Position numbers and translations under genes: made by a program. 64,000 nt of DNA, taken from positions 2,046,001 to 2,110,000 of the forward strand of contig JANJGN010000053.1 in assembly GCA_026770705.1 (NCBI GenBank). The letters are read 5' to 3'. Of the stretch, positions 1,655-53,154 are shown one piece after another. Source of the stretch: Isurus oxyrinchus. Lineage: Eukaryota. Every line of letters begins with the position of its first letter. The first letter of the stretch is position 1. Under the pieces are notes generated by a model. That model was given only the letters and a program-made list of their open reading frames with translations, had not been told where the DNA came from and made no database searches.

Positions 1655-1724
1655 CAGGAATACCGAATCCTGCGAGAATTGGGTAGTAAATATCCCTTAC
1701 ATGTAGAACCGTTGGCCGGATCAT
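1655..1724 (-). CDS. Exon 1 of a GPR139/GPR142-like class A GPCR (short N-terminus subfamily); exon 2 presumably left of the window
   Basis: ATG at 1724 gives MIRPTVLHVRDIYYPILAGFGIP plus one base (G), then donor GTAAG (1654-1650). The YYPILAxxGxP start of TM1 and the phase-1 donor match the other exon-1 copies. Too short for the ORF track. Confidence 0.8.
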
Positions 1725-1792
1725 TTTTTTTTAGAAGGATGCGAGATTTCACTCAGTTTTCTGATTGTATATAAGAACCGTAATTGTTTCCC

Positions 1793-1800
1793 CCTTTATA
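1793..1800 (-). promoter_or_regulatory. Candidate TATA box of the GPCR gene
   Basis: Minus strand reads TATAAAGG about 70 bp upstream of the ATG at 1724. Confidence 0.45.
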
Positions 1801-4029
1801 GGCCAACCTGTTTCCGGGTGATGAAATCAGCTCACTTAATAATTTGTGTTAGTTATAGTCACTTAACAAACAAGCGGGTAATTGACCTCGTCAGAGACCC
1901 CTGTCCGCCAATGGGGAAATTTAACAGCTCAGCACCAGAAACTTCGGCAATTAAAACTAATGATCGGAAAGTATCCCCAGAGGCAATGTGTTCTGCGCAT
2001 GCCATTTTTGAATGTTGAATGGGACTTCCCTCCTGAAGAGTGTTGGTCTCTCGGAGCTTCATATCATTCTGGTGCGATCTTGACTCAGCCATTGCAGAAT
2101 GTAAACGTGTTATGGACTGTAATGTACAACTTAAACTAATTGTATTCTTTGTGGATACCTCGTGATGACTTGGCGCTATTATGACTGGCGATGATATTGC
2201 TCGAACGTTAGTAATACTGGACATCTCCGTGTATTTATGCTTTTGCGTCAGTCATCAGTCCTGGTCTTTACCAAAAAAAACAATAATAGTAGGAAAAATT
2301 AGACAATCATCCGTGCAGATTTTAACTTATCATTATTCATCAAAACTCCACTTAAATATTAAGATGCCCTGCTCCAATTATTTTTGTTCTCAAATACAAT
2401 CATAACATGCTGGGAATACTCAGGAGATCTTGCAGCATCAGCGGAGAGTGAATCTTATTTTGTTTTTCAGGCAATGGTCAGCATTGACTTTTCAGTTTCA
2501 GATTTCCAGCACGCAGCAACACTGAGGAAGCCCCTACACGAGCAATAATTGTTGTGTCCGTGCAGAAAATCATTCCAACATTTCCAGCTGTAACACTATA
2601 ATGTTACTGCGGAGGCCTGTACGTAAAGTAATTCGTGATAACATCCCGCAAAGATCGCTGGGGGTCATCCTGTGCCTCAAGGCAATGTTCCACATTGCCT
2701 GAGTTAATATTTTAATCAGCACTCTGGGCAAAATTGGGAAAGCCCCTATTATATGAATGCTCCAATCCTCTTTTTCCACATTAGGAGCATTTTAATGCTT
2801 TGGCGAAATATCATAGCACAAGTACACTTGGGCACAACCAAAAAAAAAATAAGGAAAATGAAAAGATACTTTTAGGTTGTAACTGCGCTTGGAGAATGAA
2901 AGTGTGTCATGACATATCACTGTACAAATTCTATTACGGCAGATAAATCTATTCATCGCTCAAACTTAATGCAGCAGGAACCATTTTATCCTTGAATAAG
3001 CACAGTTTATATTGACGTTTACACCTGATAACTAAACACAAAGCGGAGTCACAAAATGAAAAGTCAAGCAATGGAGAATATTACTGCTTCCAATTGGCGA
3101 TAGATCGATTATGCATCTCCCCAGTTGACAGCGAACAAAACAGTAATAAATCACCTAAGCACAGTTGCCTTATGAAGGACAATGGTCGCGTTCAAGAGAG
3201 GAAATAAATGTCGCTTTTACACTTGAATGCAGATGCAAGGGGAGATGCGCCAATCTGCCAATAGCAATCAATGTTATCGAAGATATAGCGGGCGGGAGCA
3301 CAAAACACACCTGTGTCTCAATCATGACGAATCACTTAAAATGTGGTAAATTTGTTGTAAAGCAGCCGTTTTTGGTATTTGACAGCACTTAAAACAAGGT
3401 CTCTGCTCTCTTTACCTCGCAACCAGGTGGAAAAACACCTTATGTTTAAGAAGCGAGTGGTCACCAGTGCTTTCATTTAAATGATATTTCTTCATTCTAC
3501 CTGCCATAAGTTAAAGCCATTGTGAGTGGCGAGTGTCATCCGAATTTAAATTGCGTTGGCAGAAGTTGTTACTGGATTTACAGCATCGGAGGTGACGCCT
3601 GTAACAATTTCTGCTTCAATATAATTTTCATTGTCAACCCTGCAGTGACGCATTGAGCTCGTAAACGGTGAACTCGTCTTGCACAATTATCGTTGCTCGC
3701 AAAACAGACCACAGAACGAAAGATGACTGGTATTTCACTCCTACCAGGGTTTGTTCCGTAAAACGACGAAGAAATGGGAGGGGGATGGGGGGAGGGAGAA
3801 TCTTCCGTTTCTCTGAAGCATACAGAAAACCATTGGCCGCAGCTGTCCTTACAGATATTTGTAATAGAGCCAGAGGATGCTGGAAATACTCGACTGGCCT
3901 AACAGCTTCTGTGAACAGAGACAGCAGAGTTAACGTTTTCATGTTATTTATACAATAGGGAATAATTTGCTTTATACCTCCACACAATTTAAGACATGAG
4001 CATAATTTCTCCACCCAGATCGTCTAACC

Positions 4030-4590
4030 AATCTCCTCTCAATCTTCTATTCTCGCAGAAGAACAGGTACCGCTTTGCACATTTATCCACATAACTGAAG
4101 TTTCCCATCCTTGAATCATTCTCGTAAATCTTTTTGAACTATTTCTAAAACCTTCGTTTAAGTTGAACCATAATTTTATGAAGGTTCATTACCTAGTTCC
4201 TTTCGTTCTCTATGCCCTGATTTCTAAAACTGAGTGTTCAGGACGAAGGACTGCTTTCTAAAACTGCCCAGCCACCTTCAATGATTTATGGACATGTACA
4301 CCCACGTCCCTCTGCTCCTGCATCCAATTAGAATTTGGACCATCATTTTATGTCACCCCTCCTCGTTCATCTGACCACATTGTATCGCTTCACACTTCTG
4401 TACATTCAATTTCACCTGCCTTGTCTCTTCCCATTTTTCCGACCTACCTATACCCTATTGAAGTATATTAGTATCCGCCTCACAGTTTGCAATACTTCCA
4501 GTCTTGCACTATCCTCAAATTTTGAAATTATGCCCTGCACACCCATGTCTAGGTTATTGATATATAGCTTAAAATGCAGTGGTCCCACTA
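4030..4590 (-). mobile_element. CR1 LINE ORF2 3' fragment
   Basis: Decayed similarity to the RT C-terminal region of the other CR1 copies in the window. Confidence 0.6.
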
Positions 4591-5089
4591 CATACCGGCA
4601 ACACCAACGCACTCTGCACCCTCACACCCTCTCTCCACGCCCCAGTCAGAAGTAAGGAATGTTTGCTATATGTCATGCTTTAATAGGCTTGAATTCAATT
4701 ATTAAGATGTGGCACAATTGAATTCCAGCTATGCTAAAGAGTAACAATTCAGAATGCCACATGGTTTGAAAAAAAAATGCTTCTTGGAACTAATAATGTT
4801 AACAACAAAGCATAGGTTTAATAATATTCGCGGAATCAAATGATTAATACAGGGGGAGAGAAGGTTAGAGTAGATTAAGGGATGTTATGACAAACTAATT
4901 TGCTTAGAGCTCCTGCACTTCCAAATTCCCCACTTCACCACTGAATTTCCATCAGTCATAGTGTTATTAATAACTACATCAAGTCGTGTTTATATTGCAC
5001 CTCTAAAATAATAGATGTGAGGTCTTGTGGACGCAGCCAGAAACCTTGGTTCCACGTGCCATTCCAGGACTTGATTACCAATAATTAAA

Positions 5090-5860
5090 TTTATTCAATT
5101 ATGGGATGTGGGCTTGGCTGTGTAGGCCAACATTGATTGCCCATCCTTAATTGCCCTTGTGGTGGTGAGCTGCCTTATTGAACTGTCGCAGTCTTTGTGA
5201 CGTAGGTACACTAACTGTACTTTGAGGAAGAGAGTGCCAGGAGTTTCATCCAGTGACAGCGAAGGAACGGTGTTATATGTCTAAGTCAGGATGGTGAGTG
5301 ACTTGGAGGGAAACGTTCAGCAGGTGGTGTTCTCATGTTGCCGCTGCACTTGTCCTCCTAGATGGTCGTGGTCATTTGTTTGAAAGGAGCTGGCTAAGGA
5401 GCCTTGGCGAATTCCTGCAGTGCATCTTGTAGATGGTACGCACTGCAGCTACTGTGCGTAAATGGTGGAGGCCGTGATTGTTTGTGGATGGCGTTAAAAA
5501 CAAGCAGAGTGTTTTGTCTTGGATAGTGTCAAGCTTTTTGATTGTTGTGGGAACTGCACGCATCCAGGATAGCGGAGGGTATGCCATCAAGCCCCTGGCT
5601 CATGCCTTGTAGATGATGGTGGTGCTTTGAGGGATGAGAAGGTGCATTATGTGTCGCATGATTCCTAGCCCCTGTACCTGCTATTTTATTCACTTTAATT
5701 ATATGGCAAAACCAGTTCAGTTTCTGTTCAATAGTAATCTCCAGGATGTTGAGAGAGGAGAACTCATTACCATATTGCCATTAAATTCCAAGAGCAATGA
5801 TTAGATTCTCACTGGCTGGAGATGCTCATTGCCTGCGCTTGATTGGCACGAATTTTACTC
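5090..5860 (-). mobile_element. LINE 3' fragment (same family as 24570-27800)
   Basis: ORF 5372-5590 reads SWMRAVPTTIKKLDTIQDK...LHHLRTVAAVRTIYKMHC; family 3' tail near 5100-5170. Confidence 0.8.
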
Positions 5861-6184
5861 TGCTGATTATCTTTGCCATGACATTGCCCGAGTGATATGC
5901 CTGAGAAAAAGTGATATGGGAATGGATTGGCTTCTCAGCCACGCCAATTATGTGTCACTTACAAGAAGCACAGGAATGAAGTAAACATTGCACCGTTCAG
6001 CATTTTGTTTCATTCCCGACGTGTCTCAGTCTAAAATTTATAACTCATTGGGAGTCCATTGTGCAGCATTTCCAAAATAATGTGGAAGCAGTACATGTTC
6101 TTTGATCTAGCCAGCAGCTGACTGAATGCCTGCTAAGAAATTTGACATGCACTCGGTCGTTTTGCACTGAAGCACCCATCATAA

Positions 6185-8095
6185 GTTTAACAGGTAGGAG
6201 CAGAAGTCGACGATTCGGCCTATTGAGTCCGCTTCAACAATCCGTGAGATCATAGCTGACCTGATAGCCCTCAATTCCACTTTCGCCTTTTCCCATGTGC
6301 CTTTTCCCCGTGACGCTTGATTCCCTTATTGGCTAAAAATCTGTCTGTTATAGCCGTGAACGTACTCACTGATCCATCCTCTACAGAACTAGGTGATGAA
6401 GGAATTAACAGATTCTCTTCTCTGCTAAGAGTAGAAAGCCCTCCTCATGCCTGTCTTAAAAGGGCGACCACTTACTCTGAAATTATGCCCTCTGGTCCGA
6501 GACGGGCTGAAAGGGGAAACCAACCTTTTAGTCTCTACTCTGACATGCCGCCTCAGAATCTTACATGCTTCAAAAAGGCCGCCTCTCAATCTTCTAAACT
6601 GCAATAAATACAGGCCCAGACTGTCCCACCTCTCCTCATAAGAAAATCCCTCCTTACCCGGCATCAACCTAGTGAATCTTCTCTGGTCTGTGACCAATGT
6701 AATGCACCTTTCATTAGAAAAGAGGACGAAAACTGTTCACTTTTTTCTAGGTGTGGTTTAACTATGTTCTTGTATATCTTTGGTAATACTTCTCTATTTT
6801 TATAATCCATTCGCTTTGAAATAAAGGCCAGCGTTCTGTTTCCCTTCCATAATACCTGCTTCCTGCAGCCCTTGTTTATTAAATAATATCCAGCTTCCCG
6901 ATACGCCCAGCCAAGGTGGATAAGCTCACATTTTCCAGCATTATATTCCATCTGCCAAGATTTTACCTACTAACTTGATCTGCCTTTATCCCTCTGCAGG
7001 CTCTTTGTGTCATCATCCCAACTTGCCTTCGTACCTATTTTTCTGTCAGGCACAAAGTTGACGCTGGTACAATCACTTTCCTTATCCAAGTAATTAATAT
7101 ATTTTGTAAATAATTGTGGCGCCAGAACCAATCCCTGTGGCTAGTTAGAGGCTGCCACCCTAAAAATATGCACCTGTCTCAAACCTTTGTCTTCTATTGG
7201 TTAGCCAATTCTTTATCCATGCTACAGTGCTACCCCCAACACCACGGCTTCTTATTGAGTAGCATTATGTGTGGTACGTTATTGATGGCCTTTTTTTTTT
7301 TGCAATCCTGGCATCGTACATCTGCTGATTTCCTTTATCTACCCTGCTTCTTACCTCCTCAATTATTTCTTATAAATTTGTCTGGCCTGATTTCCCTTTC
7401 ATGAAGCCATGCTGAATGTGCTTGATTATATTATGCATTTCTAAATACTCTGCTATTACATCCTTTGTAACAGACTCTAACATTTTTCCAATAACAGGTG
7501 TTAAGCTAACTGGCCAAATCTCACTTGCTTATGTCTCCCTCCCTTTTAAAATAGGGTGTTGAATTGGTAGTTTTCCAATCCTCTTCGAATTTTCCAGGTT
7601 CTAGGGATTTCTGAAATATTACTACTAGCGCATCCACTCGGCCTTTAATCCCACTGGTTTCCATAGTCCTTTTTCTCTCGTGATAGATATTGTATCTATT
7701 TCTGAATCCACAACCCCACCACCCTTTTTTCCCCTTGATTATTTCTTATTTTTTGAATGATATTAATGTCTTCTTCTGTAAAGACTGATGCGAAGTATTT
7801 ATTCAACTCCTCTGCTGTTTCCTTTTTTCCCGTTATTATTTCCCCAGCCTCGTTCTCTAAGGGGCCTATGTTCACTTTGACTTCTCTATTCCTCCATATA
7901 TGTTTAAATAAGCTCTAGCGATCCGTTTTGACATTACTTGCTGGTCTATGCTCCAATTTTATTTTCTCTCTTTTGTTATTTTTTGGTCAGCTTTGTTTTT
8001 TAAAGCATCTCCATGCCTCTGCTTTCCCACTAATCTTTGCCACATTGTATATATTTTTCTTTCAATTTGATACGATCCACAACTTCCTTGTTTAA
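6185..8095 (-). mobile_element. 5'-truncated CR1 LINE (RT region and 3' tail)
   Basis: ORF pieces MEYNAGKCELIHLG, YKNIVKPHLE, QRRFTRLMPG...YEER...RRLRGGL...RTRGH are CR1 ORF2 C-terminal motifs. Confidence 0.85.
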
Positions 8096-8097
8096 CC

Positions 8098-11000
8098 GTC
8101 GAGCCTGCTCCGTCATTCAATATGATTATGGCTGATCGAACAGTCCAATGCGCTTTACTCAAACTATCCCCACAACCATTTACGTTATTGCAAATCCGAA
8201 ATCTTTCAAACTCCTCCTTAAACATTCTCAATGACTGAGCATCGATGGCCCTCTGGGCCAGATAATTCCAAGAATTTACAATGCTCTGAGAAAATACATT
8301 TCTCCCATCTGGGCCTTAAGTGGCTTCCCTCTTATTTGGAATTGTGTCCCCTGGTTCTAGACTCGAAAGCCAGGGGAAACATCCGAACTACATCGACCCT
8401 GTATATTCCTTTCAGCATTTTGCAGGGTTCATTGAGATCACCTCTCATTCTTCGAAACTCTAGTGGATGCAGGGCCAGTTTCCCCAATCTCTCTTCATAT
8501 GATGATCCCGCCAGCCCCGGAAGATGTTTGGATAATTTCGTTGCACCCTCTGTGGCAATGCCATCCTTTCTGTATAAGGTGACCAAAACTGCCCACAGTA
8601 CCGCAGGGGCAGTCATGCAAAGCTTCAATACATTTGAAGCAATTGTTCACTCCTTCTTTACTCAAACCCTCTGCTGATAAAGGATGACATTCTACTCGCC
8701 TTCTTAATTGTTTGCTGCACCTGTATGTTAGCTTTCAGGGACTTTTGGACAAGAACACGCAGGTACATCTACACTTTCATTCTCTTATCGTTTACGAAAT
8801 AATCTGCACATCTGTTCCTCGTACCAAAATGCATAACCTCAAATGTTTCCGCATTATATTCCATCATCCATGTTCTTGCCTGCAAACTAAGTTTATCCAA
8901 ATCTTTCAGCAGCCGCTTTACATTGTCCTCATGGCACACATTAACCCCTAACTTTGCATCATCCATGAAGTTGGAAATATTACATTTGGCCCCCACATCC
9001 ACATTATTGATATATATTGTGAACAGCTGGGGCCCAAATACCGATCCTTGCAGCATTGAACTAGTCAAAGCCTGCCAATGCGAGATGACCTGTTTATACT
9101 TCCTTCATGTTTTCTGCCTGTTAGTAACCGCTTAGAACATGCCAGTATATTCCCCTCATCCATTGTACTTTAAATTCGCTAACCAACCTCCTGAGGGAGT
9201 CTTTATCAAAAGCCTTCTGAAAGTTGCCCATCGACCCTTCATCAATTGTGTTACTAACATCCTCAAAAAACGCCACCAAGCTCGTCAAATGTAATTCCAC
9301 TTTCGGAAATCCATGCTGACTATCCCCAGTCAGATCATCATTAACCAAGCATCCATTTATCACATCATTCAGAATAGATTCGAACATTTTCACCACTATG
9401 GAGGTAGGGGTTAAAGGCCGGTAGTCCCCTATTTTCTCTCTAACACCCTTCATAAATAGTTAGGTGGCATTTTCTACCTTCCAATATTCCAGAACCATTC
9501 CAGAATCTGTATAATTTTCGAAAATGATCACCAATATATCCATTACCTCTATAGCAACCTTGTTCAACACTTTAGATGCAGAATATCAGGTGCCAGTGAC
9601 TTATCAAATTTCAGTCCCATTAATTTCTTCAATACAACCTTCTACCTTATACTAATATCCTTCAGATCCTCATTCTCCTTCGTCCCTTGGATCTCTAATC
9701 CTGGAAGAATTCCTGCATCCTCCTCAGTGAAAATATACACAAAGCAAATATTTAAATTATTTGCCATTTCTTTATTCCTCATTATGAACCAACCTCGTTC
9801 CTCCCAGAATAGACAAATATTAATCTTAGCCAAATTATTCCTTTCCACATTCCAAACTGAAGATTCTATAGACAATGTTTATGCTTTCTTTTTGCGAAAT
9901 TGCATGCATGTTCTATTTTCCATTACTTCACAAGTATGTTGATCCTCCTTTGCTTTATTCTAAAAACCTCTCTGTCCTCAGGTTCACTACTACTTATGGC
10001 AACTTAATTAGCCTTTTCTTTTAAACATATACAATCCTTAGCTTCCATTGCCAGTCATGGCTGAATGACTTTTTGGGTTCTTGCATCTTGAAGGAATGCA
10101 TATATGCTGTAAGCTATGTAGTAGTTCTTTGAAGACTGTCAATTGTCTATCTTCAGTCGTACGTTTTAATGCATTTTCCCAATCCACCGCAGCCAATTGA
10201 ACCTCATGCCTTCCTAATGTCCTTTATTTAACATTAACATCCTTGTTTCAGAGTGAACTACCTCATTTTCAAACACAATGTAAAGTTCTACCATCTCGTG
10301 ATCACTCGCACCTAAAAGTTCCTTAACACAAATATTATCAATTAGCTAATTCTCATCACATAATACTAAATGTAAAATAACCCGTCCTCTATTCCGCTAC
10401 TTCACATGCTACTCTATAAAACCATCCCTGACACACTCCAGAAATTCACCTTTCAAAACATTCATACTCAGTTGGTTGACCCAATCTATATGCAGATTGA
10501 TGTCAGTGAGGATTACTGTATTGTACTACATGCATCTGTCATCTCCTGATTAATACCATGCCCCACAATGCCACGATTGTTTGGTGGCGGGTAAACTGCT
10601 CCAACCAAAGTCTGCTGCTCTTTGCTGTTTCTTCACTCCACCCAACCAATTCTACACGTTGTTCTTCCGATATGAGATCCTGCCTTATTAATGGCCTGAC
10701 CCCATCCCTTATTATGACTGCACCTCCCACTGCATTTACTTTTTGTCTGTCCTTCCTAAATGCTGAATATCCTTGAATATTCAACTCCGAGTCTTGCTCA
10801 CTCTGCAACCATGTTTCTGTTTTGGCAATTATATCATACCCATTTAGCTCTATTGGTGTCTTTAGATCATCGACATATGTGAATGCTGTGGCCCTTCATT
10901 TCGAATGCCCTTAACTTTTTATGTTGACATAATTCGGGATTCGAAGCATACTAATTCTCAAAGCAATGCTGTTTCTCCTGCCTTCTGGTCTCACTACCAC

Positions 11001-12300: not shown

Positions 12301-13022
12301 CCGGGTATCTCCGCCCCCTGAAGGTGAATGTGAACCGCTTTTACCCACCTTACTTCTAATTCACAGTGCAGGTCCAATTCCAAGCTTGAAATGCATCAAC
12401 CCTAGGGCAACATTGCAACACTAATTTTGCTTCAATGTTTGAAGTGATTTCATGCCTTAAATTTAGCATTCCTTCTCAAGTCAAGTTCGGATGAGCAACA
12501 TTCCTAGTTGGGGAAATTGATAAAGAGAGATTACAAAAGATATAAGCCTGTTGATGGAAACAAATGTTGCAGCTTGAGGTTTGCTTTCCGCAGAGTATTT
12601 TCAACACTGAGAGGAAGCAGAACGTTGATGTTGCTGAGCAGCATTGTGAAAAAAAATCGGAAATGTTCTTATAGCTCACTGGTAATCTGAAACTTTGAAT
12701 TTACGAGTACAATAATTCTAACTTCCCAGCTGTCAGCAAAGACTGAGTGTCGACGGTCCTTGGGTCGGTCTTCGGTACCAGTCGGGAAATACAGAATCCA
12801 AGTGACCCTCCCCCTGCTACCTTGATACTGTCTCAAAGAAGCATACTGGAATGATATTTGAGTGTATATTGATTTAATACTTTGCAAAAGTGTCTGCATG
12901 CAAGATAAGAAAGAATCAAGCCACATAATTCTCACTCGAAATACATCTTAGCATTTCCTGTACATACTGTGATATGTATCTGACTGTCGCTGTTAATGAT
13001 CTAATTTGCCTCTTTCTTGCAG

Positions 13023-13940
13023 AGAATCTACTGACAATCATGACTCTTGAAAGAAGAAACTCCGCCCTTTCCAACTGTATCACTGTCTATATTGTGTTTG
13101 GCAACAGCAGATCTACTGGCAATATTTTTTAAATAGAATATCAAATTTTCAGCAATATCTTTGCACATTCATTCCTCTCCAGCACTGTCATTGTTATGAC
13201 ACTGTCAAACTTAAAATTCAACAGGCAGTCCATCATTTTTCGCTGAAGAACCCATCATAAACTGGCACTGAATGTGACTGCCTAATTCGCAATTCAGTTC
13301 CAATTCTAAGCTTCAGTTGTAACTGTCACTGCCCATGATATGTTGACCAAATTTTAAAACATAGCATTTCACTGTGACAACTGCTACAGTGGTCTCTGTG
13401 CTGATCGATTCAGAGAATGTGCCATTTGGTTTGCCGAGAAACACAAATGTTCATTTATTAGCTACTGAACAAACTGAAAAAAACAGAGATCAACAAAATG
13501 ATCATTAAAGATATTCATTGGGGTTCCCGCCCTGGCGTGGATTTTTTTCATCGCCTTCTGCGATAGCGGACTCTGTGCTCAGATGTATTTTATCTTCATT
13601 ACTTAATTTTCTTTTTATATTCTTATTTAAATGTTTGACAATCAAACGCATTTTAACACTTACCAGAGCCCCCAGGGGAGTCCGGGTTCACAACGGTAAG
13701 AATCGGAATGACCCAGAGGTGGAAAATCGAATAAAACCCATTGTCTGCTTATCCACTATATCCAGCAGTTGTATGACCTTGTGGGTGACAGCTGCTGTCA
13801 GCTCTCTAACTAAGAACTGAGCAGTTCATTACCGACCCGATGTTACATCCCTGGCATACATCGCCTCTCAAACAGGTTATATGTTGATTTATCTGAGTTC
13901 CAATGCAAAACATTGTCGTTATAAAGTGACACAAGCTGTC
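13023..13940 (+). pseudogene. Heavily decayed GPR139-like GPCR exon 2
   Basis: Acceptor tctttcttgcAG at 13021-13022, then NLLTIMTLERRNSALSNCITVYIV / LATADLLAIF, IHWGSRPGVDFFSSP, and ORF 13518-13820 CLTIKRIL...NDPEVENRIKPIV...LWVTAAVS (TM5-ICL3-TM6), then TGYMLIYLSS (TM7). Many frameshifts, stops and insertions. Confidence 0.8.
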
Positions 13941-18589: not shown

Positions 18590-20330
18590 TGCCTGGCAAT
18601 GTTCCGTTTGTGGTCAACGTTACCAAAATGTTAATAGTAAGGCATTCAGCAAAAGCAATGCCATTGAATGTCATCAACCGATGGTTTGGTTTTATCTTGC
18701 TGGAGGTGGTGATTGTCTGGCATTTGTGTGGTACAAATTTCACATGTCATTTGTCAGCTAAAGCCTGAATGTAGTTCACATCTTGCTCGACTTTGACATG
18801 GACTGCTAAAGCAGCTGAGAATTCGTGAATGGTGCTGAACATTGTGAAATGTTCAACCACTCCTTACCTGATAATGGAAGGAAGGTCATTGATGAAGCAC
18901 CTGAGGGCGAGGGCACTACCCTGAGGAACTCCTTCAGTGATATACTGGAACTGAGGTGACTGACCTCCAACAACCAGAACCGTCTTCCTTTGTGCTAAGT
19001 GTGAGTCCAACCAGTAGCAAGTTTTCCCCTGATTCCCACTGAATCCAGTTTTGTTCGCGCTCCATGATGCCTCACTCGGTTAAATGCAGCTTTGATATCC
19101 ATGATGGCCATTCTTACTTCGCCTTGGTAGTTTAGCTGTGTTGCCCATGTTTGAACCAAGGCTGACATGACTTCAGGAGCTGAATGGCCGGAGCCGAACC
19201 ACACTGGACATCGGTGATCAGGTTATTCCTAAGCAAGTGCCACTTGACAGCACTGTTGATTGCCTCTCCAGCATTTTACTGCTGATGGGGAGTAGACTGA
19301 TGTGACGGTAATCGGCTGGGTTGGAATTGCCCTCTTTATTCTGTGGACAGAGCAGAGTTGGGTAATCTTCCAGATTGCCGGGTGGATCCAAATTTTGTTC
19401 CTCTACTGGAACCACGTTTTATACTGCATTCATGAGATGTGGGTGTCATTGGCCAGGCATTTAATTCCCGTCAACAATAGCCATTTTTAAGCAATTTCAG
19501 ATGGCATTCAAGAGTCAACCATATTGCTGTGGGGCAGTATTCACATACAGGCGATACCAGGATTGTAGATGTACTTATTTAAGGGCATTGGTAAACAATA
19601 TGTGTTTTGAAAACAATGGAAGATAGTATCATGTTCACCATTACTGAGAGTAGCATGTAATTCCAGATTTATATATTCCGTAATTAAATTCAAATTGCAC
19701 AAGGTGGGATCTGAACCCAACTGCCCTTAGAATTTCTGTGGGATTCTGGATCACGAGATCTTCAAACTAATGACCAGAACATAGTTCCCACCTGGCTTGA
19801 AAGAGTTGCAGCAAGTTCTACAACACAAGTCTTCAGGACTACTGCCAGAATATTGCCAGGGACCATAGTATTTATCGTTTCCAATGCCTCCATGCATCTC
19901 TTGTTATCACGCAGTGTTTCTAGGCAGCTAATCATGGTGCTCGACATTATAATCCACCAGTTTGTGCCCTTTTAAAGTCCAGTGCATTCTCCAAGTTGTT
20001 TTCAACATGGAGGAGTATTGGTTCGTCAACTGAGTGGGAGAGTGTTTGGGGTTTAGGTGGGTGGACCTTACGTAGCAATTAGCAGGAGAGGACCATGCAA
20101 ATGTTTGACCTGATTTCATGAGACCGCATGAGGTTCAATGTTGAGGGCTTCCAGGGCAGCTCACTCCCGAGAGTATATCACTGTGCCGCTATCTCGTCTC
20201 GTTCTGCCCTGCTGATGGACAGGTCAAACTCAGGGTCTGTAGCAGTGGTTTCTGGGACATTATTCCTAAGTTAACATTCCGTGAGGATGACTCTGTCAGG
20301 CTGCTGCTTGAGTAGCCTGCAAGACCAAGC
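18590..20330 (-). mobile_element. Internally deleted LINE (EN to RT) with a nested tRNA-derived SINE at ~19430-19790
   Basis: ORFs SNPADYRHISLLPISSKMLE and VRMAIMDIKAAFNRVRHHG. The inserted segment matches the head/body of 24570-24860 and ends in a decayed LINE-type 3' tail. Confidence 0.8.
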
Positions 20331-20890: not shown

Positions 20891-20953
20891 CATAAGAAGA
20901 GTAATAAAGATATTTGTGGTTTATAAAACAAACAAATGGACAGAGAGACTTAC

Positions 20954-21360
20954 CAGGCACACCAACAATAGCGAAGATAGAATAATAAGCCGCTTGTATA
21001 AGCAGAAATGCTCAATTGATGCGAGTGGCTAATGGCAACTGATCATAATCTGTAGAAAGATAGTACAGGGAATTGGATAAACTGTCCAATGTTGTAGCAT
21101 TCTAATCTACTCTTCTCAGTTTCTGATTGGAACATTCAAATCTAATGATCTCAGTTTCCTGATCCATTGTAGTTACATTCCGATCTATTGTTCTCAGATT
21201 CTGATCTCTCCTCCCAATCCCTCTGGAGCCCCTGATCCCTCTCAGTGTCGGAGGTGATGCTACTGCGGACACGATGAGATAAACATTGAAATGAGTCCTT
21301 ATTAATAGTAGTGGGAAACCCTCCAGTGACCCATTTAGGGTCTGTGGAGACCAACAACAA
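20954..21360 (-). pseudogene. Dead exon 1 of a long-N-terminus GPR139-like GPCR
   Basis: Paralogous to 52704-53154: DQNLRTIDRNVTTMDQ...LRRVD*NATTLDSLSNSLYY...LPLATRIN*AFLLIQAAYYSIFAIVGVP plus G, then GTAAG (20953-20949). Two in-frame stops; TATAAAA on the minus strand at 21411-21417. Confidence 0.85.
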
Positions 21361-21654
21361 TTATTGTCACTGAACAAACAGGTTCCGTTAGCCCTTTCCA
21401 GTCCAATATTTTTTATATTGCATGGAAGTAGAACGGAGAGAAGAAGAACATCAGAACAGCGCGAAAAGGGGCGAGATTTCATGAACTGAGGAGTTTTAAT
21501 AGTAACATGTAAAGCGGCTTGAGTTGGAAAGCCCAGGAGTTATAAAAATTGCGTTATTAGCGGCGAGAGTTCAAAAGCAGAGGAGTTAAAGAAACAGTAA
21601 TAGTCTCATAAAAACTGAGGATACAACAGCAGGACAGAGGGAGGGATTGTGCGA

Positions 21655-36780: not shown

Positions 36781-37332
36781 TCTCTATCCAATTCCGCTTT
36801 AACCACCAATGTTCACGCTGAATCAACCCCCACTCATTTAAACTTTGAACTTACCTTACACCCTCTTATTGAACTTACTTTGTCTGACCCCTTCTCCCGG
36901 TGCTCTCTGGGATTTCCCTTCCTTGTTTCCAACAGAGTGATTCCTCCCCAGTCAGTATAAGGCTACGTGACGATGTGCATTCAGTCAGGCCAATGGGAGG
37001 TCAGAGCTGTTGGGAGGTGTTTAGTTTTTTCTCTCCATTCCGATAGGCAGTCTGCCTAATGGGAGTGTGGAGGCTTTCGGATGTGCTTTCAGTCCAATCC
37101 GGGAGTGTTAGCGACGACGGACAAGGCACGCCCGCGGTTTTGTGAGCAGATATTTTAAGATGTGCTTTTTAATTTCCAATCAGTGATGGATATCCTTTAG
37201 GAACAGGTAGCGTGGCCAATGCGAGTGAAGGGCTGTTACAAGGTGTGTCCTATCTGCCCAATCAAAGATCGGAATCCAAGATGGACAGGCCTCCCGACCA
37301 TTTGGAAACTCTCAGTGATTGACTTCTTCTTA

Positions 37333-38230
37333 TCATTGAATGCATTGAAGAATTGGTGTAAAGGGATATTTCAGCCCAATATTCAACTGTTGTCTGAACG
37401 CATTCCGTGTCACCACATAAATCACAGTGTTAATGTAACAGCTCAGGAGTTGCGGCATGAAGCCCAATTCCTGAACAAAGCGATCTAACCATACTGAAAT
37501 AAACCCCAAGAACAACATGCGGTTCCGTACAGAAAAGAGCATCAACATTGACCATAAGAGGGTGAAATTGGCCGAGATCGCAAACAGCAAAATGATGGAT
37601 TTCATTTCGACTCTCCATCCCTGGGTCTCTGGGTTCTCCCCACGGCTGTGAGCCCGGAGTCTCCTGCGGGCTCTGCTGCTCATTAAAGTGTGTCAAACGG
37701 TGAGAACATTGAGCAGCAGAATCAGGACAAATGGGACAGACGGGGTGAGTATCTAATTGGTGAACTTGACTGTTACCCAGAACTGAGAGAACAGAACAGC
37801 GAGTGTGGTATTACAAAACCAGGGGATGTTCACCAGCCGATACCCACCTGTGAACACTAAGAACCAGAAAATATTCTTTAAACAACTCAGCACATTCACT
37901 GTTCCCAGAACCACAGCCGCCGTTTTCTCGCTGCAATATTTACTTTTCCGTTTTGGACAACAAATGGCCACAAATCGGTAAAAGGTGAAAGTAACAGTGA
38001 ACCAGACAGAACTGTCTGTGGCCGCATGAAGCAGGACGGCGTGGATATTACACACGGGGATGGAATACAGGAAATGAAACTGTTCATTGAAAACAATCGG
38101 AATATGCCTCAGTGTCAGGTCCAGGATAACGACCAGTAGATCCGCCATTGCCATGGCCCCAGGTAACAAGTGGCACATTTGGACAGGCCACGGTTTTTAA
38201 ACTTCAGGATCACAATTGTGATTACGTTCA
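37333..38230 (-). pseudogene. GPR139-like GPCR exon 2 (end of TM1 to C-terminus), pseudogenised
   Basis: Acceptor tttcccttgcttacAG at 38232-38231, then NVITIVILKFKNRGLSKCATCYL / AMAMADLLVVILD...SVWFTVTFTFYRFVAICC...KSIILLFAIS...LLSCYINTVIYVVTRNAFRQQL. Lesions: -1 frameshift near 38158, TAG at 37753, TGA near 37695, and a paired frameshift in ICL3. Confidence 0.92.
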
Positions 38231-38959
38231 CTGTAAGCAAGGGAAATAAACATTACAATTATTAATCAGGCAGGGGAAGGGGTTGACAGTCGTTTGTGGA
38301 GCTATTGATATTTTCAAATGCATGATTGAAATTGGTGATCTATTGAAATAAATTGACCTAAAAGAAGAAATGGGAAGGCCGCTGATTCGGGGAAGGAAGC
38401 AGGGGTTAAGAAACAGGAACGAGGTTAGGATACAGAGGAGGTGGGAGGGACATGGGAGCCAAACAATGTAGGGACCGAAAGGTGAGTCGGGAGTAAAGGG
38501 AAAACAGCCGGCCAGGTGCCGCTTGGCGCGCATGTGCAAAATTCAGGGAAGTCCCGCAGTCAATCAAAAGAGCAATTAAGCCCAATAATGGCACAATTGC
38601 CTCCGAGTTTTATTGGTTCATCCAACCTTACGGTTGGTGGAAGGGCTAAACGGTCAGGCGGCCTTTACCTATTGCATTAAATCTCATGCAATGGATGGAT
38701 TAAATCTCCGTTTTGAAATAAAATTCATAAAAACTGTGCTCAGCATTTTATTAGCTATATTTTCAGGTGATTGACTTTGAAGCGTAGATGTTTTACGCTT
38801 TTTAAAACTTTATATGATGATTTTCAGGTCAGAAACTGCCTGAGGCAGCTATCTGCCTTCAGGGAGCTGTGTCACAGCGCTCACTCGCACCCGTGGAAAC
38901 CTCATCGCCGGGCCTCTTCCCTCCCTCTCCTAGGCAGCGATTAAATTTTCAGCTCACGC

Positions 38960-40261: not shown

Positions 40262-40397
40262 NNNNNNNNNNNNNNNNNNNNNNNNNNNNNNNNNNNNNNN
40301 NNNNNNNNNNNNNNNNNNNNNNNNNNNNNNNNNNNNNNNNNNNNNNNNNNNNNNNNNNNNNNNNNNNNNNNNNNNNNNNNNNNNNNNNNNNNNNNNN
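40262..40397. other. Assembly gap (136 N)
   Basis: Run of N. Confidence 1.
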
Positions 40398-42409: not shown

Positions 42410-44250
42410 ATGGCAGACCGAGGAATAAGCCAGGAGTCTCAGGAAGAAGCAGCACCCCCGTCAAAGAGCACGGACGGGACATTCTCCTGACTGTGGTAGG
42501 CACACACACACAGAGATATCCAGTTCCCTGATGGATCCAGGTTTCCTCCAGCCACAACAAGTGGATCGTGGGTGAAGATAGTGGACTTCATCAGCTACAC
42601 TAGGGACCACCGGAGAAATTTGCTACCGTGTCCGAACAACTTCTTTGAACTTTTGCACTTTGTTTAGGTGCAGAAGGTGCCCCTACTAGGCATAAAGCCT
42701 TTTATTGCTGCATCGAGCTTGTCGGTATTAGTGCGGCTACATTGTACCTGTTGTTCAGCAGCAGTAAAGGAGCCTGCGCCCATGGCAAAGGTGAAGCAAA
42801 CAATATCAACGATAAAGAATGGCAATGAGGATAATGAACTTTAAACCGCTCGTAGCAATCTCCAATCAAATTGACTCGATGAGACAGCACATCACTGTCC
42901 TTCTTGTCCCTGAAGGGTAAGAGGACGATGAATGCACAAGGGTACAGATGGCCGCGGGTAGGACGTAAAATATTCGTGTTGTTCAACCTGTGGTGGAGAG
43001 TACAATGCACATTTCCAGAATACCATCCAGGGAAGTCATCAGGGTGACACTGAGTTCTCCCTCTCAGTTTCACATGGCCCGAATATTGATGAAGTTGTAC
43101 AGGTGGTGATGTGGAGTATTGGGTGCGTTCTTGGTAGGAGGGGGGAAATGGAGGGCTGAGATTTGGGTTTGGCAGCTCGGTTGGGAATGGTAATTTGTTG
43201 CTCCAAGATTTTGTAGTGTTTAGCCAGGGAGACATGAATGACATCAACCGAGTACAGATTAATGTGTGGAAGGACGTTACTAAGCAAATCGACGTTCTGC
43301 ATGACCTCATCTAATGAATGCCTTACATTTCTCTCACAGATACCAGAGTTGCTACTTGACCCCTGGAGAGGATTCAGGACTCGGACACGAGGAAGAGGAA
43401 GACTTGTCCAAGGAAGCAATATAATCACCATTATACTCAATTTCCCAAGCCTAGAGACTCACTTTCCATTGGGTACTCGTGTGGAATAAAAATGGGGAGA
43501 ACTGGGTGATGAGCAGATCACTGCAGTACAGGAGGAGGTATTAATGGTGCAGGTTTTTGTTCAAATTTCCGCTGCAGGGGGAAGGGCAGAAAGAGGGATG
43601 CACAGCGATACAGCCAGACTGAACCTCCGGAGTCTCAGTTTGGGATTCTGTGCTCAGACAGACAACAGCAGTTGTGGCCATTGAACTGCATTGCCTGAGA
43701 CATTGAGAGCTCATGCACTATGATTGAAGGAGTCCATGGCTACAGTGACCTCGCCCCATCTCTGTTGAGGAACATATGAGGAGCAGTCAAGAGAGTTTCC
43801 GACCTCATTGCGAGCTCATGCAGCAGCAGTGAGACCTCATTCTGTGGCACTAGCTCCGTTGCAGTAATGGGAGAGGAGCCCATGAGCCTGAACATGACTT
43901 TCACATGGGGGTCAGATCGCTGTCTCCAGAGGATGGCAGCTGTGCCCCAGGCTTTGGAAAGCAACTGCAAGGGCTGAGCAGTGCCAACAGGAGCGTGTGG
44001 GATTGATGAATGTTATGTAAATGCCCGCCCTTCTGATTCCTCGCCCCTTGAGTTTGGAATACCATATGATTCATGGGTCCAAGTGAGAGTGGTGGCCCCT
44101 ACACTGATGCAGGAAGTGCAGCCACAGGGAGGGTGCCAACGGGTTCCTGAACGACGAGGTTGATAACCATGATCCACACAGCCATTTAGCCAGATAGGTG
44201 AACATTCAGTCTCCACCTCCTCTGAAGGAACAGGAGGAATATTACATGTA
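42410..44250 (+). mobile_element. Decayed Myb/SANT-like accessory gene of a PIF/Harbinger transposon
   Basis: Near 42440-42600, across frameshifts: EEAAPP...ILLTVV...RDIQFP-DGSRFPPATTSGSWVKIVDFIS, resembling the Myb/SANT-like domain of Harbinger accessory proteins. Acidic segments follow downstream. Confidence 0.45.
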
Positions 44251-44283: not shown

Positions 44284-44580
44284 TGAGAAGCATTCTGGGA
44301 GACCCAGCACAGTCTTCTCAATTCAGGGAGTTGAGGAAACGGACCCTTGCGCTCAATAGGAGGAATAGCATCCAACAGAGTTCGATAGCGAGAAGAGGCT
44401 TAGAAGGATTCTGACATAAGTCAGCACAGTCACTGCAACTCAGCAGGGGATCGACGAGAAGGACCGTTGCACTCAGCAGGAGGAATAGCATCCAACAGAG
44501 GGCGTAGTGAGAAGTTACTGAGATGCATTCTGGGACAAGTCAGTGCAGTCAGTGCAACTCAGAAGGGTGTGAAGGAGGGC
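44284..44580. repeat. ~120-bp tandem repeat, about 2.5 copies
   Basis: ggaggaatagcatccaacagag occurs twice, and a cattctg...cagcacagtc...actcag block occurs three times. Confidence 0.75.
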
Positions 44581-45170: not shown

Positions 45171-45184
45171 TCTAGTCAGTATTC

Positions 45185-46740: not shown

Positions 46741-47289
46741 ACCGCACATTCCATCACTGTGCTGATTATTGGGAGATGGTGGACGGTGTGGTAATTGGAT
46801 TGGATTTGTCTTGCTTTTTGTGTATGCAACAAATCTTGGTAATTTCCCACATTGATGGGCAGATATCAGTATTGGATCTGCAATGGTTTTTTATTCTGCA
46901 TTTATGCAGTGCAGATGTCACTGGCCAGGAGTTTGATGGCAATCCATAATTTTCATTTAAAGGCAATTTCAGGCAATATTCAAGTGTCAACCACAATGTT
47001 CTTGATCTTGAGCCACATGTACGTCAGGCCAGGTAAGGGCAGCAGATTTCATTCCCTTAAAGACATTCATGAACGTATGGCAATTAACATTGGTCTCACT
47101 GGATTATTTCCGTGTGCACTGAACATTAGCCTAGAACTCTGAAAGCAGCGACATTAGCCTCCCACAGCCAGTGGGATACTGTGTACAGCCAGTCCCCAAA
47201 GAGGAAAAACTAAGGAAAGCCAGACTGATGTTATTTCCAGGGAATTGACAAGGATCGACTGTCAGACTCAGCAAGATGAGGTACAGGGG

Positions 47290-47950: not shown

Positions 47951-48478
47951 GTAATTCTCTGTGGAAGCACCATGTAGGAGCAATAGGCAAGTCGGGCGAT
48001 CGCACCGGGCAGGGACTAAATGAATATGCAAGGGTAAAGACTTCAGTTTTGTATAGTGTAATCAGATTTCTTATTGGATAAAAATGTAAATCAAAACGCT
48101 TTCGGCCTTGGTTTTTATTACATGATGGTGGCCAAGGTGAAGCTATGATGAGACATGTCATATGCCTGGAGAAATGGAGAATGGGGAATGAATGTTTGTA
48201 AAGGATAATTACCCATTTGGTAAAGTAGCAGACACTCTCCGACTGCATGCCCAGGTCGAAGGCATCCAGGAACTATCCTCCCTGCTTCCTGCTCCGCCAC
48301 CTGAGCTGTCCTCTGGATTCCTTCTGACAATGCGTTCATGATGGTGATGATATTATGGTTGTAACAGGGCACCATGGAATTGGACACTTGCTCCAACATA
48401 TCTTTGGAGGTTCACTCCGAGCGTTTTAGAAATCAGGAACGTTGCTTCCTCATATGGATGATCTGCTCTACGACGTTT

Positions 48479-49300
48479 CTAGTGACTCCATTTCTTCTTG
48501 TGTACATGTGCTACGTTCACGAGCTGTTTTGACGTTTGGCATGGTGAGGTGGAGGGTGTTTTGAGCTCTGTATCGATTGGGCAGCCTTCATCTCCTAGAA
48601 GATACGGCCTGGTTCTCCTTGGAGATACAAAGATGGTGGGAATGGCTGAATGTTTCAGAATGAAGGCATTTTGACTGCCTCCATGATTTTGGGCATTCAC
48701 CAACAGGGTTTAATGTGCATGGCTGCACATAAACCGTACATTATGGCAGCCCACCACCACCAACTCAAGGGCAACTAACCGGTGATGCCCACGTCTGTGA
48801 AAGAATATATAAGAAAACATAATCCTTCTTGGAGTGAGAGTCGCATTTTTCCCCATTGTCACGGGGGCCGAGCAACACCATATACACCATCGCAAATCCC
48901 ACTATGCTGGCAGAACTACTCTACCTCTCATCCCCCCTCTCTCTGCCCTGGAAGATTACAATGTATTCACCTCACCCTGCATCGGTGGTCTCCTTCCCCT
49001 AGTGGATTAATCGATGGACAGCATACTGGGAGTTGATGGATATGTCACCCGCTGTGTTCTGCAATGATCCAGGTCCATAGAAGTTAAGTAGAACTGTGAG
49101 CATAACGGCCACTGACATCATCACCCTCAACTTGGTGTGAGGCTCTATGTTGCGTTGGAGGAAAACAGCACTCTGACCACCTCACCATTGAATCAGAGTC
49201 ACCTCACACGCTACCCCTGGACTAGGCATATGTTGGTAATCTGCTCTTGGAAAACGTGGGATGGATAGGGCAGAGCCACCTCCTCCTCCTGCTTGACAGC
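48479..49300 (-). mobile_element. Harbinger transposase pseudogene
   Basis: VAVMLTVLLNFYGPGSLQNTAGDISINSQYAVHR (N-terminal) and VNAQNHGGSQNAFILKHSAIP...LLGDEGCP (catalytic core); interrupted by a LINE-tail fragment at ~48720-48810. Confidence 0.8.
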
Positions 49301-49779
49301 TCCTCTGCAGCCTATACTTCACTTGTTGGTCATGTAACAAACATAGATACAAAGTAACTATAGTCCACATACCTGGTCCAGAATGGGTTCAACAATCCAA
49401 CCTCCTAATGTATACAGCACGTCCAAGAAACCGTCCAAAGCATCTGCACTAATTTTCCAATCACATAATTGAATTAATTAGGGCAAGGGAGTAATTTGCA
49501 GGATGTTCGGAATGGATAGATGGATACAATTGATTTGAAGTTTGAGACAATGAAGAGTTTCAATCACAGAAATGAGATTATTAAACTTAAGAAGCTGCCA
49601 GACCCTTAATGTAGGTCAGTTATTACAGGGATTATGGATGAACGGGCTTTAGTGTGAGCTAAGAGAAGCACAGCATAGCTTTGGAGGAGCTGAAGTCTAT
49701 GAAGGTCTCAAACAGGAACTGTGTGGCCAGGTTCAAAATGTAATACTCGATGCTGGATTGACCAAATATACAGATGAGC

Positions 49780-52430
49780 GGCAATTCAGCAGCCGAGCTG
49801 AGCTGAGGTGTTGATGTGTGATATTGCTATGGAGCTAGCTAAAACTATTTTCTGAACTTGAGCAGAGCTGAGAGTATATGCACAGCGCTCTCTGAGTGCT
49901 ACTTCAGTGTACTGACTGTGAAGAGACAAGTTTGGTGAGGGTCTGAGATCAGTTAAGGCGGAAGTATCAATAAATTCAGGAAAAAATAACACAATTAAGA
50001 TGGCAGGAAGCTAAATTCGTCTCTACTGCAGCATGTCGGCATTCTTGGAGCTCATTGCAATCTATTACACCACATTGGCAGTAAGTGTCTGCGGCTTGAG
50101 CAGCTTTGGTTCAGGTTAAATTGAGGCGATCAGCATTTTGACACAGCAGGGAAGTGGGAGTTACGTGGACACTTTACTCAAGAAAGCAGTGTGTCTCAGG
50201 TCATCATTTGGTCAGGGACTGGAAGTTGTGACTGCAAGCCAGGCAGGTAATGGGATTAGGAAGCTAGGAGCGAAGGAGCATCAGCCCATAACATTGAGCA
50301 AGAAGTTTTTGTTTTTTTTACAACTTGTATGGACAAGAGTGAGGGCTGTATTATGGACGAGCAGACTGACCATGTGCCATGATACACGAAGCTATCCAAG
50401 TGAGGGGAGCTAAAAGGAATGCAGTCCTTGTAGAGAACAGTATAGTCAGGAGGAAAGGTACTGTTCTCTGCAACCAAGAACGAGGGTCCAGTGGTCTGTG
50501 TTGCCCACCCTGTGCTAGGATTTGTGATATTGCGTTGGGTTAGAGAGAAACTTGTAATGGTCTTTGTATGTACCAATGGCATAGGTAAGTGGTTGTGCAT
50601 TGGGAATTTGAGGAGCTCAGTTCCAAATTTTAAATCAAGCAGAACATCAAATGCAATAATTATGCATTATTGTCTGAACTATGTGCAAATTGCATAGGGC
50701 TAAATATGATGAGAAGATGAATGTGTGCTTCAAAGGCTGGTGAGAGAAGTGGTTTCCGGTTTGCTGGGCACTAGCAACAGTATTCGGGAATAAAGGGGGC
50801 TGTACCTTTAGGGTAAGCTTCGCCTGAACTGTGCCGGGGCCAATATTCTGGCGAACAGTATAATTCAGCAAGTAGAGGGGGCTTTAAACTACATAAAGTG
50901 ATGAAGTGGTCATGTCGGGGAAGTTAACCAAATTGAAGTGAGCTGACAAGGCAACTGATCAGATAGCATTAAAGTTATTGGTAATTAGAGTATCGCAGGA
51001 AGGGAAAGTGATTATTAACTTAAGAAAGGGGCAGGTTTTAGAATAATATTTAAAATAATTAATTAAGGGCTCCGTATCAGATTGATTGCAGCATCCTCAA
51101 TATAACAGTGGAAAGTAGCAAACGTATGAAAGAGGGGAGAGCAAAAACAACAAACTACTTTTGAGAATAACATTAGTAGCAGGGAAAATGCTATAATCTA
51201 TTATAAAGTATGCGATAACAGGACAAATAGAGTTTTGCATGATTTGGAAGAATTCACATGGATTTTTGAAAGGGAAATTATTCTTAACAGACCTGTTGGT
51301 GTTTCTCTGAGTCTATAGCTAGCGGAATAGATATAGGGGTGAGCGATGAATGTTCTACATTTGGGTTTTTAGAAAGCTTTTTGTGACACCACACACGAGG
51401 TCAGTAAACATGCTTAGAGCACATGGGATTCTGGTTAATATGCTGGCATGGATTGTGAACTTATTAACAGGCAGAAATCGGAGAGTATGAATAAATGGGT
51501 CAGCTCCAGGTTGGCAGGCAGTGACTAGCAGGTACTGCAAAGATCAGTGTGTTGGCCCCAGCTATTCACAATATATATCGATGATTTAATTGTGTGTTTT
51601 GAATGTAATATTTACAACTGTGCTGATCATGGAAAACTAGGTGGAAGTGTGAGTTGTGAGGAGGAGACAAATGTGCATCAAAGATATTTGGAGAGGCTAA
51701 ACGTGTAGGTAAAAAAAAAACAATGCAAATGTACTACAAGGTGGAGAAATATTATATTATCCACTTTGGTTGAAAAAAAAACAGAAATGCAAATCATTCC
51801 TTAACTGGTAAGAGGATGGACAGCGTTGGATATCAAAGGGACTTAGGGTACAATCTGCAGCTGCAGCCCCCGTAATCAATGAAGAGGGGTCATGGCATAC
51901 TGGAATTCATTACAAGGGGAATTCAGCATAGAGGTAAAGATATCTTACAGCAATGATATAGAGCCTTGGTGAAACAATACCTAGTTTATTGTTTGCAGCT
52001 TTGTTTTCTGCACCTGAAAAAAAGTATGCTTGCTATAGAGGGAGTGTAACATTGTTTCCACAAACCAATTCCTGGGATGTAGGAATTCTCTAATGAGGAA
52101 AGGTGAAATATCTTGGAATTCAATCCTCTTGCTCAACAGTGGAGGTGCAGGAAGGATGTTTCCCCTGGCTGGGTGTTCCAGAGCCAGGAAACATAAGCAC
52201 ATGAAAACAAATGAGGCAACTATTTAGGGCTGAGATGAAGAGGACTTTCTTCACTCAGAGAGGGTGATTCTTTGGAATTGTCTACCCCACGTGGCTGTTG
52301 AGGCCCAGATGCTGACCATGTCGAAGAATGGAATCGATAGATTTCAAAAATTAAAATTGTCAAGGGATACAGGGTTGCGCAGGAAAATGGTTTTGAACTA
52401 GAGGATCGGCCATGGCCTACACCTATTCGT
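49780..52430 (+). mobile_element. CR1 LINE with ORF1 remnants and a large ORF2 internal deletion
   Basis: ORF1 start atggcagga near 50000, esterase remnant MVCVAHP...VCTNGIGK, RT remnants 51150-52300, and a 3' tail. Confidence 0.75.
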
Positions 52431-52703
52431 GTTTCTTACATTCTTAAATGATGGAAGTGGTAGTGGACATTTCAGGGAAGGAGATAATATGGGGTTGCAG
52501 TTCAGCTCAGTGTGGAATGGAGCATGGAACTGCATCAGATATCAGCCGGGGGTGGGGCGTGAGCGTGTGGAGATTGGATATGGGACCGATTTAGTGACTG
52601 GAACCGAACAGAATGGTTTCAACCTCTCGAAAAGTTAAATGGCAAAGAGATTACTGCAGTTCAACATTGTTTATAGAATAATTAATTCGATAAAGGATCT
52701 TAC

Positions 52704-53154
52704 GCGGGACACCAAGAATTGCCAGGATGGGATAGTAACCTGCTTGAATAACAATAAGCGTGCATTCGATCTGCGATGCTAAAGGCATCCAATCTAGTGT
52801 AAGCCAGTAAAGACTCTGGGATAAACCTCTGCCCTTTGTTGAAGCATTCCAATCTATTTTCCTCATATTCAGATCCATTGCAGGAACATTCAAATCTATT
52901 GCTCTGAAATTCTCATCCATTGTTGTAACATTCCTGTCTATTGTTTTGAGGTTCGGATCCATTTTTGTATAATTATCATTTAAAGTTCTCAGATACTGGT
53001 CACTCCGCTCCCTCTCTCTGGAGGTGCTAATGCCTGTTCGAGTCGGAGGTGATGCTCCTGCTGAAAGAATTGGCGAAAGCATTGAAAGGAATCTCTTATT
53101 ATTAGAAGAGGGAAAGCCTCCAGCGACACAGTTAGGATCCATTGAGACTGGCAT
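52704..53154 (-). CDS. Exon 1 of a long-N-terminus GPR139-like GPCR (open frame; the true start may be an internal Met such as 52962)
   Basis: 150 codons ending IQAGYYPILAILGVP plus one base (C), then GTAAG (52703-52699). Phase-compatible with the exon at 38230 (GVP-L-NVITIVIL). Heptad repeats carry N-X-S/T sequons. Confidence 0.8.

Follow-up and report, generated by a model that had tools for sequence, protein, structure and literature searches.

GPR139 and GPR142 are two-exon G-protein-coupled receptors (GPCRs) that respond to tryptophan and phenylalanine, and GPR139 orthologues are 70% identical from human to zebrafish (PMC7318219). The protostome sister receptors of this branch bind aromatic amidated peptides (PMC7318219, PMC8557429), and the FMRFamide/myosuppressin receptors are related to it (PMC8557429). 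A birth-and-death offshoot of FMRFamide/myosuppressin-type receptors, the nematode srw chemoreceptor candidates, has been proposed to detect environmental peptides (PMC2576165). Here we analyze a 64,000-nucleotide stretch of Isurus oxyrinchus DNA (assembly GCA_026770705.1, contig JANJGN010000053.1, positions 2,046,001 to 2,110,000; hereafter, the window), which is best explained as belonging to a tandem cluster in decay; the clustered genes come from a family of class A GPCRs that lies on the GPR139/GPR142 branch and has expanded in sharks. Most of the cluster seen here is dead, and the interest lies in the wider family: repeated duplication of a two-exon gene has produced deep subfamilies, and copies are still being lost.

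Five Receptor Pieces in the Window

A family hidden Markov model (HMM), built from 61 full-length homologues and run on the window and on a reversed-window control, matched exactly five places, with domain scores of 9.3–437 bits compared with 3.1 bits for the best match in the reversed window. Six-frame scans, translations and the HMM identify these pieces as three first exons (E1a, E1b, and E1c) and two second exons (E2a and E2b) (Table 1). A profile of the exon end in transmembrane helix 1 (TM1) found three exon-1 ends, each continuing with a single base and then GT; the reversed control had none. All five junctions are in phase 1 at the same TM1 codon. In the search of representatives clustered at 50% identity, 27 of 150 matches, as counted by eye, start at query residues 45–47, where the split codon lies, and 12 of 150 at the first methionine after it; the TM1 intron looks family-wide. 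No sixth piece above 4 bits was found in the window by a broader HMM (62 family rows). A candidate at 42702–43458, suspected from an open reading frame (ORF) translation, was ruled out, as it had no GPCR match.

In the finished tree, which comprises 49 rows, E2b falls inside a clade that we call subfamily A (support 100/100), and E2a pairs with homologue P0189 in a separate clade (100/87). When the longest stretch of E2a without a stop served as the query, a search for homologues returned none among 148 candidates, and this exon was placed later by local comparison. The best match of E1a, over 23 residues only, is P0188, which belongs with P0189 to the second clade. The exon 2 of E1a would be left of the window. 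Neither the HMM nor the exon-end profile found a plus-strand exon 1 upstream of E2a in the window, no minus-strand exon 2 was found downstream of E1b within it, and the window holds no complete intact gene. E1c is the probable partner of E2b across a 14.5-kb intron, a pairing that we infer because an assembly gap (40262–40397) separates the two exons. The gap consists of 136 N with AC-rich simple repeats on both sides and may hide further sequence. Exon 1 of subfamily A carries a 21/42-base tandem repeat (52836–52969 and 21140–21207), the unit of which encodes N-glycosylation sequons and is present in 0 to 4 copies across 66 scorable homologue N termini.

Lesions were read by frameshift-aware alignment to family references. 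E2b contains two stops (37753 and 37693) and one to three frameshifts, the number varying with the reference: one near 38160 and a probably compensating pair at 37634/37600. The frameshift near 38160 lies in a G run, so a sequencing error may be its cause, but the two stops disable E2b independently of it. E2a contains seven stops and five to six frameshifts relative to its two closest references, and E1b two stops, while E1a and E1c are open exons. Three of the five pieces are therefore disabled.

These results sustain most of what an earlier note, made from the letters of this stretch, had proposed: five receptor pieces, both orientations (four pieces minus, one plus), two subfamilies, and copies that are mostly pseudogenes. 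Its "at least four loci" holds as the simplest count, though there may be three if E1a and E2a are one gene split by an inversion. Its 53-kb span shortens to 51.3 kb, its end at 53154 being an in-frame ATG upstream of a TATA-like box; the homologous start is at 52962. The shared phase-1 TM1 intron stands for all five pieces, whereas the YYPILA motif attached to it does not extend to E1b, which reads YYSIFA.

Table 1. Receptor pieces and upstream elements in the window (positions are those of the window)
Feature	Position	Strand	Family HMM match	Junction	Description
E1a	1655..1724	-	1614-1760	final exon-1 base 1655, GT donor	Intact short coding exon 1, 23 codons + 1 base, ATG at 1724, subfamily B
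E1a TATA box	1796..1801	-			74 bases from start of shared motif
E1a shared motif	1858..1874	-			Forkhead-like core; 2 mismatches to E1b/E1c pattern
E2a	13023..13940	+	12941-13937	first base after AG 13023, phase 1	Heavily decayed exon 2, TM1 to TM7, subfamily B
E1b	20954..21167	-	20949-21128	final exon-1 base 20954, GT donor	Subfamily A coding exon 1, in-frame stops about 21102 and 21012
E1b upstream region	21300..21382	-			Shared motif 21366-21382; TATA-like element 75 bases from motif start
E2b	37331..38230	-	37336-38234	first base after AG 38230	Subfamily A exon 2, TM1 to helix 8, 68-70% identical to intact shark paralogues
E1c	52704..52962	-	52693-52878	final exon-1 base 52704, GT donor	Intact subfamily A coding exon 1, 86 codons + 1 base, N-terminal 21/42-base tandem repeat with N-x-T/S sequons
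E1c upstream region	53097..53179	-			Shared motif 53163-53179; TATA-like element 75 bases from motif start

A Large Shark Family

With the E2b ORF as query against clusters at 90% identity (259–2,000 residues), 611 of 1,015 candidates matched at E ≤ 1e-3, so that the "only a few copies genome-wide" which the earlier note had weighed against an expansion did not occur. The best 120 of the 611 are all shark sequences, most of which NCBI names "probable G-protein coupled receptor 139", and are spread across many different contigs; they come from Heterodontus (63), Rhincodon (27), Heptranchias (10), Stegostoma (8), Scyliorhinus (7), Chiloscyllium (4), and Mustelus (1), and no ray or chimaera names are among them. 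At least 63 distinct sequences among these 120 thus come from one shark species, in subfamily A alone. Long, intact subfamily A ORFs occur in eight named species of seven genera, and their core motifs hardly vary. Searching 50%-identity representatives gave 119 matches at E ≤ 1e-30, 229 at 1e-10, and 1,293 at 1e-3; named shark sequences fall into two of the subfamilies so represented, to which the window contributes a third. Some gene models (P0133, P0136, and P0185) fuse family members to sequence that by eye looks integrin alpha-, MMP hemopexin-, or TRIM-like coiled-coil, a hint at the genomic neighbours of other clusters.

In the finished tree, E2b groups (99/95) with sequences from Scyliorhinus, Mustelus, Stegostoma, and Rhincodon. 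The expanded clade, supported at 96/95, has an amphibian clade as its sister group (100/98; P0240, Pleurodeles), and just outside both lie a ray-finned fish clade (P0258) and P0239/P0248. A search of these amphibian and fish relatives yielded, in the best 120 of 223, 20 amphibian sequences from 20 species and 97 from ray-finned fishes, among which no repeated species was noticed; three rows were dropped. The amphibian sister lineage thus appears, from this one-per-species pattern, to be single-copy. Its members (P0240, P0270–P0289, P0381, and P0383) represent an apparently single-copy orphan GPCR of frogs, salamander, and caecilian, with near-invariant pocket (0.97) and extracellular loop 3 (ECL3; 0.92), of which we have seen no description. 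The amphibian and fish relatives are possibly the GPR210A/B of Rinne et al. 2019 (PMC6504862), a paper that does not mention sharks and whose GPR210 passage refers only to coelacanth, gar, and fishes. The shark expansion was not found described in the open-access literature searched, and subscription journals or supplements could hold mention of it; the family is apparently undescribed, though its proteins are public in NCBI under a misleading automatic name.

Receptor Class and Relation to GPR139

The predicted structure of the intact homologue P0013 is a seven-transmembrane bundle with helix 8 (predicted local distance difference test score 89.4; predicted template modeling score 0.87), and every listed Foldseek match to it is a class A GPCR, with GPR139 (7VUG) at rank 1. 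The window fragment scores slightly below the cut-off against 7tm_1 (28.5 bits, E = 1.3e-6, compared with 30.5 bits), and PF00001 is present in all of the best 120 of 611 homologues. Residues N48, D77, C107, D131, R132, and C186, which make up the core motifs N1.50, D2.50, the DR motif, and the cysteines linking TM3 and ECL2, are nearly invariant. From its motifs and modeled fold, we assign the family to the class A (rhodopsin-like) GPCRs.

Among solved receptors, GPR139 lies closest to the family in sequence (41 bits), profile (110.5 bits, compared with 90 for the next), and fold; it is also the nearest characterized receptor, but a remote one. Orthology with GPR139 was rejected: 41 bits and 21% identity in the structural alignment compare with ~70% for true orthologues. 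The nearest Atlas clusters, which serve as a lead only, are "probable GPR139" chordate clusters, followed by invertebrate FMRFamide/Srw-like receptors. The GPR139 intron presumably interrupts the same TM1 codon. In the GPR139 pocket the polar pair that takes part in Trp/Phe binding is R6x51 and N7x38 (PMC5430874). Subfamily A instead has L (74%) or F (21%) at 6x51 and F (91%) at 7x38, and the deep set is mixed at both positions; the amphibian and fish relatives keep a basic 6x51 (K/R) and N7x38 as in GPR139. Subfamily A retains an aromatic residue at 3x33 (Y 85%, F 11%), H5x43 (97%), and W6x48 (100%), of which the deep subfamilies keep W6x48 only. Because the polar pair is replaced, amino-acid sensing is not transferable from GPR139. 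As it stands, the earlier note's comparison of these GPR139-like receptors with GPR139/GPR142 is not supported, since the pieces are not copies of GPR139. The family was also not seen to nest within a characterized receptor family by sequence, profile, or tree, a tree that did not include GPR139 and GPR142 themselves.

The Ligand Pocket Is Rewritten between Subfamilies

Positions of the GPR139 pocket were mapped onto the family by offsets from conserved anchors; three further positions follow what we take to be standard class A numbering. Most of the pocket positions come from PMC5430874. In the deep set of 54 representatives, which is more divergent than the controls, may hold pseudogene models, and is uncertainly aligned in the loops, the 22 pocket columns have an identity of 0.26 compared with 0.50 for the other TM columns, and none of 10,000 permutations was lower. 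The corresponding values are 0.97 and 0.81 for the 20 amphibian orthologues and 0.87 and 0.81 for the 97 fish orthologues. Tree-based site rates over TM2–7, with a null limited to extracellular-half positions, give the same picture: in the deep set (45 of 54 rows) the pocket evolves at 1.60, the other extracellular-half positions at 1.02, and the intracellular half at 0.55 (p = 0.001), whereas in amphibians the pocket is slower (0.18, compared with 0.74 for both the other extracellular half and the intracellular half; p < 0.001) and in fishes (45 of 97 rows) it is no different from its surroundings. The ratio of extracellular to intracellular rates is 2.1–2.4 in both shark sets and 0.8–1.0 in the amphibian and teleost controls. 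Inside subfamily A, variation is found in ECL2, ECL3, 6x58, and 7x31, and the pocket core is fixed across seven genera. Thus, between subfamilies the pocket is rewritten and the intracellular half conserved, while outer loops vary within subfamilies. Homologue searches, tree, and rate comparisons together support the lineage expansion with birth-and-death decay that the earlier note had envisaged, and pocket identity and site rates show the pocket diverging as in a repertoire.

A Shared Upstream Motif

The regions upstream of E1c and E1b are about 71% identical. A motif that we take to be forkhead-like was first picked by eye in all three upstream regions (Table 1). The 17-base E1b/E1c pattern, allowing two mismatches, has one further site on both strands of the 64 kb (expected 0.06), and that site is upstream of E1a; at three mismatches one unrelated site appears (expected 1.28). 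An unbiased best-window search selects the same motif, and the TATA-like elements are in register with it (offsets 74, 75, and 75). The motif is probably, judging from these sequence matches, a core-promoter element shared across both subfamilies.

Repeats and Transposon Remnants

Transposon remnants comprise a long terminal repeat-type piece with reverse transcriptase (RT) and RNase H at 60711–61328 (+) and two RT fragments at 8772–9104 (-) and 18998–19222 (-). A fourth remnant, at 57768–57851 (+), matches a gene model outside its receptor portion; this model also carries PF13359. Copies of interspersed repeats are found at 5.1–5.8, 17.3–18.6, 21.6–26.5, and 27–30 kb, and a 119-base tandem duplication (1.9 copies, 80% alike) at 44286–44567. 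At 61620–61809, one inverted repeat (31-base arms, 87%) is nested in another (51-base arms, 88%), forming a 190-base hairpin-like element, probably a miniature inverted-repeat transposable element, for which Rfam gave no match. The end of the window (62750–64000) is an AT-rich, degenerate, non-coding 72-base tandem array of about 11 or more copies, 60–76% alike. A protein repeat was ruled out here by 21–44 stops per frame. The array contains homeodomain-like TAATTA (9), forkhead-like (13), and CCAAT (8) motifs, an enrichment inflated by the repetition itself, and could be an old satellite or a cluster enhancer.

What the Receptors May Detect

We favor, at about even probability, a birth-and-death repertoire of chemical detectors with many ligands, one downstream pathway, and one cell type, most likely one facing the environment. 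Many receptors with different ligands would feed one shared G-protein pathway and would be expressed from the shared core promoter in a single cell type, such as chemosensory cells of nose, skin, or mouth, gill, or the gut lining. Peptides or derivatives of amino acids carried in the water may be their ligands, because receptors of the wider branch bind amino acids and aromatic peptides, though the polar anchor of GPR139 is replaced; this is the weakest step of the proposal.

Several observations weigh against this repertoire. Within subfamily A (117 sequences, chosen by similarity to a TM2–TM5 query), pocket identity is 0.81 compared with 0.79 for other TM positions, and the pocket rate is no different from its surroundings (p = 0.28, 45 of 117 rows), so many copies may share one ligand class. 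The 90% clusters may include alleles, haplotigs, and pseudogene models, and the deep representatives are taken, rather than named, to be of shark origin. The unbiased test of the upstream motif is modest, with null exceedances of 7/584 (k = 17), 43/589 (k = 14), and 87/573 (k = 20). The available part of a catshark atlas gives a top-50 "brain & olfactory epithelium" list without a GPCR (PMC11979771), and the supplements searched of PMC11372145, PMC13188829, PMC12286861 (12 of 19 files), and PMC8455134 (12 of 24 files) contain no mention of the family.

A conserved inside with a variable outside also occurs in immune receptor families, and birth-and-death evolution with a variable pocket would fit equally well if the family served as immune or barrier sensors, that is, leukocyte, skin, or mucosal GPCRs detecting microbial or parasite peptides. 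Formyl-peptide and MRGPR receptors offer an analogy for such sensing. The fused models with integrin alpha-, MMP-, and TRIM-like neighbours point the same way, and cartilaginous fishes lack MAS1-type receptors, leaving a niche (PMC8455134). We nevertheless regard an immune role as unlikely, as sequence, profile, and fold all place GPR139, and not a chemokine or formyl-peptide receptor, closest among solved relatives; a GPR139-labeled gene is also absent from four supplementary files of a shark immune-cell atlas, a weak negative because gene labels may differ. Ancestry within the branch, and a subfamily A pocket core fixed across seven genera, would instead suit a role like that of GPR139 and GPR142, namely recognition of endogenous peptides or metabolites in brain, endocrine, gut hormone, or reproductive signaling. 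Against this quite improbable alternative, a polar pair like that of GPR139 is retained in relatives that seem to have one copy and whose pocket is conserved, and fast gain and loss are unlike known peptide receptor families, as was argued for srw (PMC2576165). The least probable reading is neutral genomic bloat, in which segmental duplication in transposon-rich regions has left most copies silent or dying and few functional. The window itself, with orphan exons, three of five pieces disabled, no intact gene, and RT and RNase H remnants between the receptor pieces, looks like this, and many database models are partial or have unrelated N termini. However, rate differences track receptor geometry and are not those of uniform decay, and the intact ORFs and core motifs of subfamily A persist across its species and genera.

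The repertoire of chemical detectors has a bolder form, tentative and somewhat unlikely, in which the family would be a seventh vertebrate chemosensory GPCR family and the largest smell or taste repertoire of sharks, arisen from the GPR139/142 branch in parallel to nematode srw. It would explain how sharks, with their many olfactory neurons, can do with only ~44 canonical olfactory receptors. Published surveys portray cartilaginous fishes as poor in GPCRs (PMC8455134) and in chemoreceptors, with a mean of 43.8 complete genes in total over four olfactory families (PMC10869828) and 65 genes across all chemosensory families in catshark (PMC6368271), and non-traditional mechanisms of olfaction have been called for in a preprint on the Greenland shark (bioRxiv 2025.02.19.638963). 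The family turns this question of shark olfaction into one testable with existing RNA sequencing data, and it changes the shark GPCR count whichever tissue it serves. The ancestral ligand might conveniently be sought with the amphibian sister gene, which appears to be single-copy.

Comparison with Known Receptor Systems

The shark family would represent a birth-and-death GPCR repertoire built from a branch for which no such repertoire is known in vertebrates. Like the OR, TAAR, V1R/ORA, V2R/OlfC, T1R, and T2R families, it combines clusters, pseudogenes, lineage expansion, and a variable pocket, but those families belong to other GPCR branches and are absent from the best 60 PDB profile matches. 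With GPR139 and GPR142 it shares two exons, W6x48 family-wide, and, in subfamily A, the 3x33 aromatic and H5x43; GPR139, in contrast, is one conserved gene in place of many copies and pseudogenes, and its R6x51 and N7x38 are replaced in the shark family. The GPR139/142-like subtypes of bony vertebrates show one match per species and a conserved pocket, and the shark expansion differs from them in both respects. Among the Atlas look-alikes, 16% to 87% of members bear PF10324 (Srw). Srw itself, being of independent nematode origin, is a convergent parallel to the shark family, not a group to which it belongs.

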